A stretch of 64,000 nucleotides of DNA, taken from the NCBI RefSeq assembly GCF_003334335.1, contig NZ_QOWQ01000027.1, one strand, 5' to 3'. A model generated the notes under the pieces. That model made no database searches, was not told the DNA's origin, and was given only the letters and a program-made list of their open reading frames with translations. Below are positions 10,950 through 61,958 of this stretch, one piece after another; positions within the stretch are counted from its first letter, which is position 1, and each line of letters begins with the position of its first letter. The position numbers were made by a program, and so were the translations under genes. Origin of the DNA: Escherichia coli (GTDB taxonomy: Bacteria; Pseudomonadota; Gammaproteobacteria; Enterobacterales; Enterobacteriaceae).

Positions 10950-12077
10950 TTAATCCAATCCCAGCACACCGCGAAGTTGCGCCAGATCTTCCGCCAGCGC
11001 AGTAATCGGTCCTTTCAGTGCATTCCGGTCGGCATCGGTCAATTTGTCGTAGGTTTCAAAACCGTCTTTAGTACGGTATTTCGCCAGAATGGTATCGACC
11101 TTTTTAAAGTTGGCATCGACTTTTGCCAACAGTTCCGGGTTGGCTTTTTGCAGTTGTGGACGCAGCAGATCGACAATTTTCTGCGAGCCTTCAACGTTAG
11201 CCTGGAAATCCCACAGATCGGTGTGGCTGTAGCGATCTTCTTCACCGCTGATTTTGCTGGCTGCCACTTCCTCAATCAGTCCGGCTGCACCGCCGACCAC
11301 TTTTGAAGGTGGGAAAGCCAGTTCACTGATGCGTTTTTTCAAATCGACCACATCGGTATAAAGCTGGTCAGCGTACTGATCCATGCCTTTGGTGGTGTTG
11401 TCGCCAAACAATGCTTTTTCCAGACGGTGGAAACCGGTGAATTTTGGATCAGCGGCTTTTTGCTCGTAATCATCTTCACGGGCGTCAATGCTGCCATCCA
11501 GATCGGAGAACAGTTCAGCAATCGGTTCAATGCGCTCATAGTGCTGGCGCGTCGGCGCATACAGTGCTTTCGCTTTTTCGATATCGCCTGCTTTAATCGC
11601 GTCGGTAAAGGCTTTGGTGTCGGTCACCAGCTGCGTGGTTTCCGCCATGACATACGCTTTATATGCAGTAATTGCACCACCAAGACTTAACAGCGCATCA
11701 CTTTGCGCCGCATCCGCCGTTGCCTCACCTTTGACGATCAACTTCCCTTTCGGGTTAGTCAGCAGACCGCAGGTCATATCGTATTCGCCAGGCTGTAAAT
11801 TCGCCGTCATTTTCTGGCTAAAACCAGGGGCGATATTTTCCCGCTCTTCCACCACCATCACGCCTTTGAGGATCTCCCACTCCAGCGCCTTCTGGCTATG
11901 GTTCTGAATAATGAACTGTGTTTTCCCGGCGTTAACCGTAATGGTCATCGGTTCGCACTGCTTATCCGTCACGGTCACTTTGACCTGCGTCACATCAGCG
12001 GCGTTAGCCATAAAAGCAGAAGAAAACAGCGCAGCCACGCTCAACTGCAATGCGTTACGGCGGAAGTTAATGGTCAT
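10950..12077 (-). CDS. efeO: Periplasmic iron-uptake component EfeO, 375 aa
   Basis: ORF track; signal peptide; operon position between efeU and efeB. Confidence 0.95.
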
Positions 12078-12134: not shown

Positions 12135-12965
12135 TTACGCGGAGCGAGACGCTGTCGCCCCTGCGCGTGGTGGCAGAGCAAATGCCACCAGCGCCGGGAT
12201 GAGATAAATAAACCAGACGGCGACTTCGCTGACGCTCGGCGCTTCCTGATAGCCAAAAATCCCTTCCATCAGCGTGCCAAACAGCGAGTGAGTTGAGAGC
12301 ACCGCACTCATATCGAAGGCGATTTCCTGAAAGTGGTTCCACAATCCGGCTTCATGAAATGCGCGAATGGCACCAGCTGCCAGCCCTGCGGCGACGAAGA
12401 GAATAAACAGGCTGGTCCATTTAAAAAATGCACCAAGATTGAGGCGAATACCGCCCCAGTAGAGCAGGAAGCCTAGCACCACGGCAGTAGCAAGACCGAG
12501 CATTGCACCCAGCGGCGGCCAGATCCCGACATCTTGTTGAAATGCCGCCAGCAGGAAAAAGACCGACTCCAGCCCTTCCCTTGCAACGGCAAAAAAGACC
12601 ATCATCACCAGCGCCCAGCCATGATGATTTCCACGCTGCAATGCGCTATCGACTGCCTGCTCCAGTTGTACTTTGACGTTGCGCGACACTTTGCGCATCC
12701 AGAAAACCATCCAGGTAAGGATCACCACGGCGATCACCGCCACGATACCTTCAAACAGTTCCTGCTCTTTTTGCGGAAATTCGCCGGTGGTTTCGTTAAT
12801 GAAGATCCCCAAGCCCAGGCACAATGCAGCGGCAAGCAACACGCCAATCCACATCACACTAATCCATCGGCCTCGCTGGGTACGCTTAAGATAGCTGGCA
12901 ATCAAACTGACAATCAGCGCGGCTTCAAGTCCTTCGCGCAACATAATGAGAAACGGAACAAACAT
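12135..12965 (-). CDS. efeU: Ferrous iron permease (FTR1/OFeT family, REGLE motifs), 276 aa, intact
   Basis: ORF track 12135..12974; start set at MFVPFLIMLREGLEA; two REGLE motifs present; one continuous frame. Confidence 0.9.
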   Translation of the reverse strand: MFVPFLIMLREGLEAALIVSLIASYLKRTQRGRWISVMWIGVLLAAALCLGLGIFINETTGEFPQKEQELFEGIVAVIAVVILTWMVFWMRKVSRNVKVQLEQAVDSALQRGNHHGWALVMMVFFAVAREGLESVFFLLAAFQQDVGIWPPLGAMLGLATAVVLGFLLYWGGIRLNLGAFFKWTSLFILFVAAGLAAGAIRAFHEAGLWNHFQEIAFDMSAVLSTHSLFGTLMEGIFGYQEAPSVSEVAVWFIYLIPALVAFALPPRAGATASRSA

Positions 12966-13024
12966 GCCACCCACCCTTAAACGTTTTTCTGAGTCAATCT
13001 ATGCAAAGAAAAGTAAATCGCAGT

Positions 13025-13042
13025 GATAGCGATTATCATTAC
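13025..13042. promoter_or_regulatory. Candidate Fur box (GATAGCGATTATCATTAC) upstream of efeU
   Basis: Resembles the GATAATGATAATCATTATC Fur consensus, about 60 bp upstream of the efeU start. Confidence 0.45.
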
Positions 13043-13506
13043 GGTAAAGAAAAATACAAGCGGAATGTTTATAAAATGATGTTGAAATGTAAACAAAGAG
13101 AGGTAATGCCAGGGGATATAAACGATTATTCCAGGTACAAAGATGGGATTGTTTACAACGAGCCATGTGTTCTTGCCGGATGCCGCGTAAACGCCGTATC
13201 CAGCCGACAAAACCGTCCTGACTCAATACATCAAAACTTCCATGTAAAACTGATAAGCGGGTGTATCAAGCAATTTCGTCCATCCTCGATTATCAAATCT
13301 AACTTTTTGCCCGGAACATAATAACAGCTCGGGTGTTGGTGGCGTCAAAATCGCTGAAGCGTTCCCCGAAGGCCGGGACAGCAGGGGGCGGCGGCGATTG
13401 GCCGCCCCCTGCGCGCTCCCTGCACCATTCAATTTATATGGCGAGGCACATTAAGGGAGCGCAACCCGCTGCTGAAGCCAAACAAAACCGCCGCAGGCTA
13501 AGTCCC

Positions 13507-25809: not shown

Positions 25810-25861
25810 ACAGAAAACCGCCGGGGTTACCGGCGGTGCAGATTGTTGACAACGTACGCAT

Positions 25862-25970
<109 letters not shown>

Positions 25971-61829: not shown

Positions 61830-61917
61830 GGAAGTGTGGCCGAGCGGTTGAAGGCACCGGTCTTGAAAACCGGCGACCCGAAAGGGTTCCAGAGTTCGAA
61901 TCTCTGCGCTTCCGCCA
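61830..61917 (+). tRNA. serT: tRNA-Ser (anticodon UGA), 88 nt with long variable arm and CCA end
   Basis: GGAAGTGTGGCCGAGCGGTTGAAGGCACCGGTCTTGAAAACCGGCGACCCGAAAGGGTTCCAGAGTTCGAATCTCTGCGCTTCCGCCA; anticodon loop cTTGAAa. Confidence 0.9.
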
Positions 61918-61924
61918 AATAATC

Positions 61925-61958
61925 AAGGGGTTACCAAATGGTAGCCCCTTTCTTTTTT
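61925..61958 (+). terminator. Rho-independent terminator of serT
   Basis: Hairpin AAGGGGTTACC-AAAT-GGTAGCCCCTT followed by TCTTTTTT. Confidence 0.7.

Follow-up and report, generated by a model that had tools for sequence, protein, structure and literature searches.

The window analysed here, a 64,000-nt stretch of Escherichia coli DNA, carries on its minus strand the gene efeU as a single unbroken reading frame (12135-12965), which spans 831 nt, comprises 276 codons followed by a TAA stop (12137-12135), and has no internal stops. In a program-made list of open reading frames it extends further upstream, to a GTG at 12974 (279 aa); the numbering used below takes as its start the ATG at 12965, the one that RefSeq assigns in related genomes. 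The frame and its profile matches identify the product as an Ftr1-type inner-membrane iron permease: it matches the NCBIfam EfeU equivalog model NF041756 over its full length with 332 bits (cut-off 255), the EfeU/Ftr1 subfamily model TIGR00145 with 351.3 bits (cut-off 303.8), and the Pfam FTR1 model PF03239 with E = 1.3e-89 (model positions 1-283 of 284). Two REGLE sequences, both of the RExxE type, lie within it, one at aa 10-14 (12924-12938, minus strand) in hydrophobic segment 1 (residues 1-24), and the other at aa 129-133 (12567-12581, minus strand) in hydrophobic segment 4 (residues 118-141). Hence, the claim of the sequence-only reading that efeU is intact with both of its REGLE motifs is borne out. 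A Kyte-Doolittle hydropathy profile, albeit a crude method, resolves seven separate hydrophobic segments, in agreement with the seven-helix topology given for EfeU, a 276-residue OFeT permease (PMC9174327). In an alignment of 108 diverse EfeU homologues drawn from a library of 1.84 billion proteins, the first motif is kept nearly throughout (R10, E11, G12, and E14 in 105-106 of the 108), as is the second (R/K129, E130, G131, and E133 in 106-107).

The two partner genes follow efeU on the same strand; both are intact and show full-length NCBIfam matches. The first, efeO (10950-12077, minus strand), begins 57 nt past the efeU stop and codes for a 375-aa periplasmic cupredoxin/M75 component, which covers the whole of the model NF007697 (769.8 bits, model positions 1-375 of 375) and has a Sec-type leader at its N-terminus. 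The second, efeB (9673-10944, minus strand), begins only 5 nt past the efeO stop and codes for a 423-aa Tat-exported DyP-type peroxidase/deferrochelatase, which is recovered by TIGR01412 (tat_substr_1; 612.6 bits, cut-off 428) and by the DyP peroxidase family model TIGR01413 (Dyp_perox_fam; 355.9 bits), and whose N-terminal SRRRLLKG constitutes a twin-arginine motif. The operon is flanked by putP upstream and phoH downstream, the same neighbours that it has in K-12. About 40 nt past the efeB stop there is a weak terminator-like hairpin (9616-9634, minus strand) with a 6-bp stem containing 4 GC pairs and a T-rich tail, which is a match to a consensus of a kind that the region as a whole contains more often than its shuffled versions do.

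Upstream of efeU, a Fur-box-like sequence, CGTAATGATAATCGCTATC, occupies 13025-13043 on the minus strand, 60-78 nt ahead of the ATG. Read from 13043 to 13025, this 19-mer agrees with the Fur consensus GATAATGATAATCATTATC at 15 of 19 positions, and the 17-nt core, TAATGATAATCGCTATC, is found at 13025-13041 (minus strand) with 2 mismatches. The core has no other match at that tolerance in the entire 64 kb, where chance alone would give 0.01; the Fur-box-like site that had earlier been placed at 13025-13042 is thus confirmed as the sole core match in the window, at 13025-13043. The box is identical in MG1655, in the APEC clade, and in O157:H7, and efeUOB is listed among the direct targets of Fur in CFT073 as well as MG1655 (PMC7157518). 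The site is a predicted Fur box, to which Fur would be expected to bind. Immediately 5' of the ATG, a purine-rich, Shine-Dalgarno-like stretch, AAGGGTGGGTGG, can be read from the sequence at 12967-12978 (minus strand), and it probably serves in the initiation of efeU translation. A scan with the sigma-70 consensus picked out no pair of promoter-like hexamers ahead of efeU, and the efeU promoter is accordingly not located by sequence alone; the one match returned by the scan lies downstream of efeB (9443-9416), and matches in total were fewer than in shuffled sequences. The spacer between putP and efeU (12966-13506), which differs between lineages, has a K-12-like length in the window and an extra 123 nt in the APEC-type clade; it also includes a repeat (13147-13213) with 85% identity to positions 25841-25907.

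The locus order of the window, putP-efeU-efeO-efeB-phoH, is also that of the K-12 reference MG1655, and the two efeU genes share 99.3% nucleotide identity. Nevertheless, the annotation gives efeU of MG1655 (b4490 in NC_000913.3) as an 830-nt pseudogene, and in a second genome of the K-12 serotype the gene is flagged as 'frameshifted'. An alignment of 1011 nt between the window and MG1655 contains 9 substitutions and exactly 1 gap, and this gap is a 1-nt deletion in MG1655 at efeU nt 106/107 (window positions 12860/12859, codon 36), where a base is missing opposite the A of the 831-nt gene in the window. The loss of one G from a GG at nt 106/107 thus produces the K-12 frameshift: the K-12 frame ends in ...RGRWIV* after 36 aa, just past helix 1, and what is left of the gene is a 243-aa remnant in a different frame, without the first REGLE. 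The deletion that makes the K-12 allele cryptic is absent from efeU of the window. The sequence-only reading had stated that efeU is frameshifted in K-12 and had named alignment with the K-12 gene as the check; both the pseudogene annotation and the single deletion in codon 36 support the statement, and the outcome that would have refuted it, a K-12 gene aligning with no frameshift, did not arise. The literature agrees on this point, in that three papers (PMC2808357, PMC7549933, PMC9174327) describe efeU of MG1655 as frameshifted and its transporter as non-functional, and describe the transporter as functional in O157:H7 and Nissle 1917. The primary sources quoted there are Grosse et al. 2006 (Mol Microbiol 62:120) and Cao et al. 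2007 (Mol Microbiol 65:857).

To place the intact allele in the context of the species, we surveyed the complete E. coli genomes, 5418 of 5426 of which have an annotated efeU. An exact match to a 60-nt probe for the K-12 deletion allele is present in approximately 368 of 5380 complete genomes. Five examples were listed among these exact matches: ER1709, J53, K-12, and AML003 are by name K-12 laboratory derivatives, and the fifth is labelled as a human isolate. The remaining genomes have the extra base at nt 106/107, which indicates that an intact efeU is the default of the species. As it represents the wild-type norm, the observation of an intact frame tells us little beyond the strain not being K-12, and an intact efeUOB is a correct but ordinary finding that is already known from published work (Grosse 2006; Cao 2007).

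The closest known systems are the EfeUOB of O157:H7 and the EfeU of Nissle 1917. The O157:H7 operon has the same gene order, efeU-efeO-efeB, and its products, as encoded in one O157:H7 genome, are nearly the same as those of the window: EfeU (WP_000497942) is identical at 275 of 276 residues, with the window differing by G36S; EfeO is identical at 373 of 375, with the window differing by P30T and Q247K; and EfeB is identical at 417 of 423, with six substitutions. The proximal promoter, taken as the 128 nt that precede the ATG and containing the Fur box, differs at 3 bases. In contrast, O157:H7 has an extra 1344-nt hypothetical gene between putP and efeU that the window lacks. At a greater distance, the yeast Ftr1p/Fet3p pair and the bacterial FtrABCD/P19 systems (OFeT) share with the window the Ftr1-type permease fold, the two RExxE motifs, and the pairing of a permease with redox and metal-binding partners that are periplasmic or extracellular. 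However, the partners here are the cupredoxin/M75 protein EfeO and the DyP peroxidase EfeB rather than a multicopper oxidase, and the relationship to Ftr1p/Fet3p is a distant one.

The nearest relatives of the strain at this locus are EC416, PEC1009, LR-29-1, GDSC2BY4G, and EEC_W5, all of which are approximately 100% identical to the window over 20 kb, as against 99.2% for K-12. The sequence-only reading further held that the strain is unlike MG1655 at the efeU locus, and these figures support it (99.2% to K-12 versus approximately 100% to EC416, PEC1009, and LR-29-1). Over 62 kb, 9 private SNPs and one 1-nt indel set the window apart from both PEC1009 and EC416. Eight of the nine SNPs are coding, of which one is synonymous and seven are nonsynonymous, namely those giving I53V in dgcT (1290), W667* in pgaB (6464), Q247K in efeO (11339), G36S in efeU (12860; nt 106 G->A), W26L in putP (14939), Y376C in yccE (29157), and A48V in ymcF (42493). 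Within the operon, EfeO differs from that of EC416 by Q247K only, a change private to the window, and EfeB is identical to its EC416 counterpart. The pgaB change is a private G->A that turns TGG into TAG, G being the base in the four nearest genomes with which it was compared; it leaves PgaB six codons shorter, ending just before the start of the overlapping pgaC. In LR-29-1, an IS1 is inserted between pgaB and pgaC (L004 1508-2205, at about position 6480 of the window), and the window has no insertion sequence there. We considered whether the private changes include an abnormal excess of nonsynonymous SNPs and rejected this, given that 7 of 8 compares with roughly three quarters expected for unfiltered mutations; the pattern fits recent mutations of the tip branch that selection has yet to filter.

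At the far end of the window (61830-64000), directly after a tRNA-Ser(tga) gene (61830-61917), the sequence leaves the gene order of PEC1009, EC416, and K-12, in which yccA comes next, and enters an island. It codes for a YkgJ-family cysteine-cluster protein (62056-62406, plus strand), a hypothetical 181-aa protein (62764-63309, minus strand), and a YadA-like protein (63324-63935, minus strand), and the whole 2.1 kb is shared by only 6 of the 5426 complete E. coli genomes.

The private change in EfeU is at position 36, whose codon (12858-12860, minus strand) is AGT (Ser) in the window and GGT (Gly) in most strains. This nt 106 A/G difference is the sole one between efeU of the window and that of EC416, and all five of the nearest genomes have G, which makes the A private to this strain among them. 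It could be argued that, despite the intact frame, EfeUOB is weakly functional or non-functional through EfeU G36S, where helix 2 begins, and EfeO Q247K. Both substitutions are absent from the nearest genomes, and the private coding SNPs, 7 of 8 of them nonsynonymous and one of these a nonsense change in pgaB, have the look of recent and unfiltered mutations, such that some could be deleterious. However, position 36 is among the least conserved of the family, with R in 51, P in 18, K in 17, T in 5, G in 5, and S in 4 of the 108 diverse homologues, even as the RExxE residues are near-invariant; serine is hence a natural occupant of the site, and the catalytic motifs are untouched by either substitution. 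Moreover, an identical S36 EfeU, RefSeq WP_000497965, is found in an established clade of natural isolates, with the allele occurring in approximately 71 complete genomes and the protein being encoded by all nine of those sampled. The wide variability of the position, taken together with its natural occurrence as serine in this clade, suggests that G36S is probably neutral, and we regard an impaired system as improbable. A sequence search of the PDB with EfeU recovered no solved homologue at E <= 0.01, and residue 36 is accordingly without structural context.

It is also mildly unexpected that the private G106A should fall on the very GG dinucleotide that lost a G in K-12. One might read this as a sign that nt 106-107 are recurrently hit, be it as a mutational hotspot, through selection tuning or switching off EfeU, or by a frameshift and its repair that left a pseudo-revertant. 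Such a reading could draw on three events at one GG, namely the K-12 deletion, the G->A of the clade of approximately 71 genomes, and the private G->A, and on our estimate that chance would place a lone private SNP of the 831-nt gene at one of these 2 nt in only about 0.24% of cases. Yet the coincidence was noticed post hoc, and it concerns a residue that is not conserved. Further, all nine sampled S36 genomes carry one identical efeU haplotype, which is separated from that of the window by 19 synonymous differences, pointing to a single origin of S36 in that clade rather than to many; on the window's own efeU haplotype, A106 was found in none of the complete genomes; and inspection of the sequence revealed neither a Dcm site nor a homopolymer run at nt 106-107. 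A hotspot at codon 36 is therefore unsupported. As for the pseudo-revertant, a -1 deletion followed by a +1 insertion of A is far less parsimonious than one G->A transition on a tip branch that has acquired only about 10 changes over 62 kb. We accordingly hold recurrent targeting of the site, in any of these forms, to be very improbable, and treat the position of G106A as a coincidence worth noting. That sequencing or assembly put a false A at 12860 (coding strand), the true codon being GGT, appears extremely improbable: as a singleton, the base does set this strain apart from five near-identical genomes, but it is a substitution and not an indel, it stands in a non-homopolymer context, and the other private differences of the window resemble ordinary SNPs. 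The main conclusion is in any case the same either way, given that efeU is intact with A or G at this position.

We therefore propose, with a probability of about 0.9, that the locus is an efeUOB (ycdNOB) operon in its ordinary wild-type form, from an E. coli strain related to K-12 but not itself K-12. The frame is intact, the motifs are conserved, the operon is complete, the K-12 deletion is absent, and the Fur box is conserved. Judged by its sequence, EfeUOB of this strain should be functional, and we infer that the operon would be expressed, would be bound by Fur, and would be active in transport. EfeU is predicted to form a seven-helix Ftr1/OFeT permease of the inner membrane, in which the RExxE motifs of helices 1 and 4 would form the path for iron, with the periplasmic EfeO and the Tat-exported DyP haem peroxidase EfeB encoded downstream in the one operon. 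Fe2+-Fur would repress transcription through the upstream box, 60-78 nt from the ATG, and the operon would be induced at low pH under the control of CpxAR, a form of regulation that Cao et al. reportedly described in 2007. The system would thereby import ferrous iron in acidic, iron-poor, aerobic conditions. In practical terms, an intact efeU offers a quick genotypic marker for a strain that is not derived from K-12. Conversely, the cryptic efeU of K-12 serves as a reminder that models based on K-12 under-represent low-pH ferrous iron uptake.
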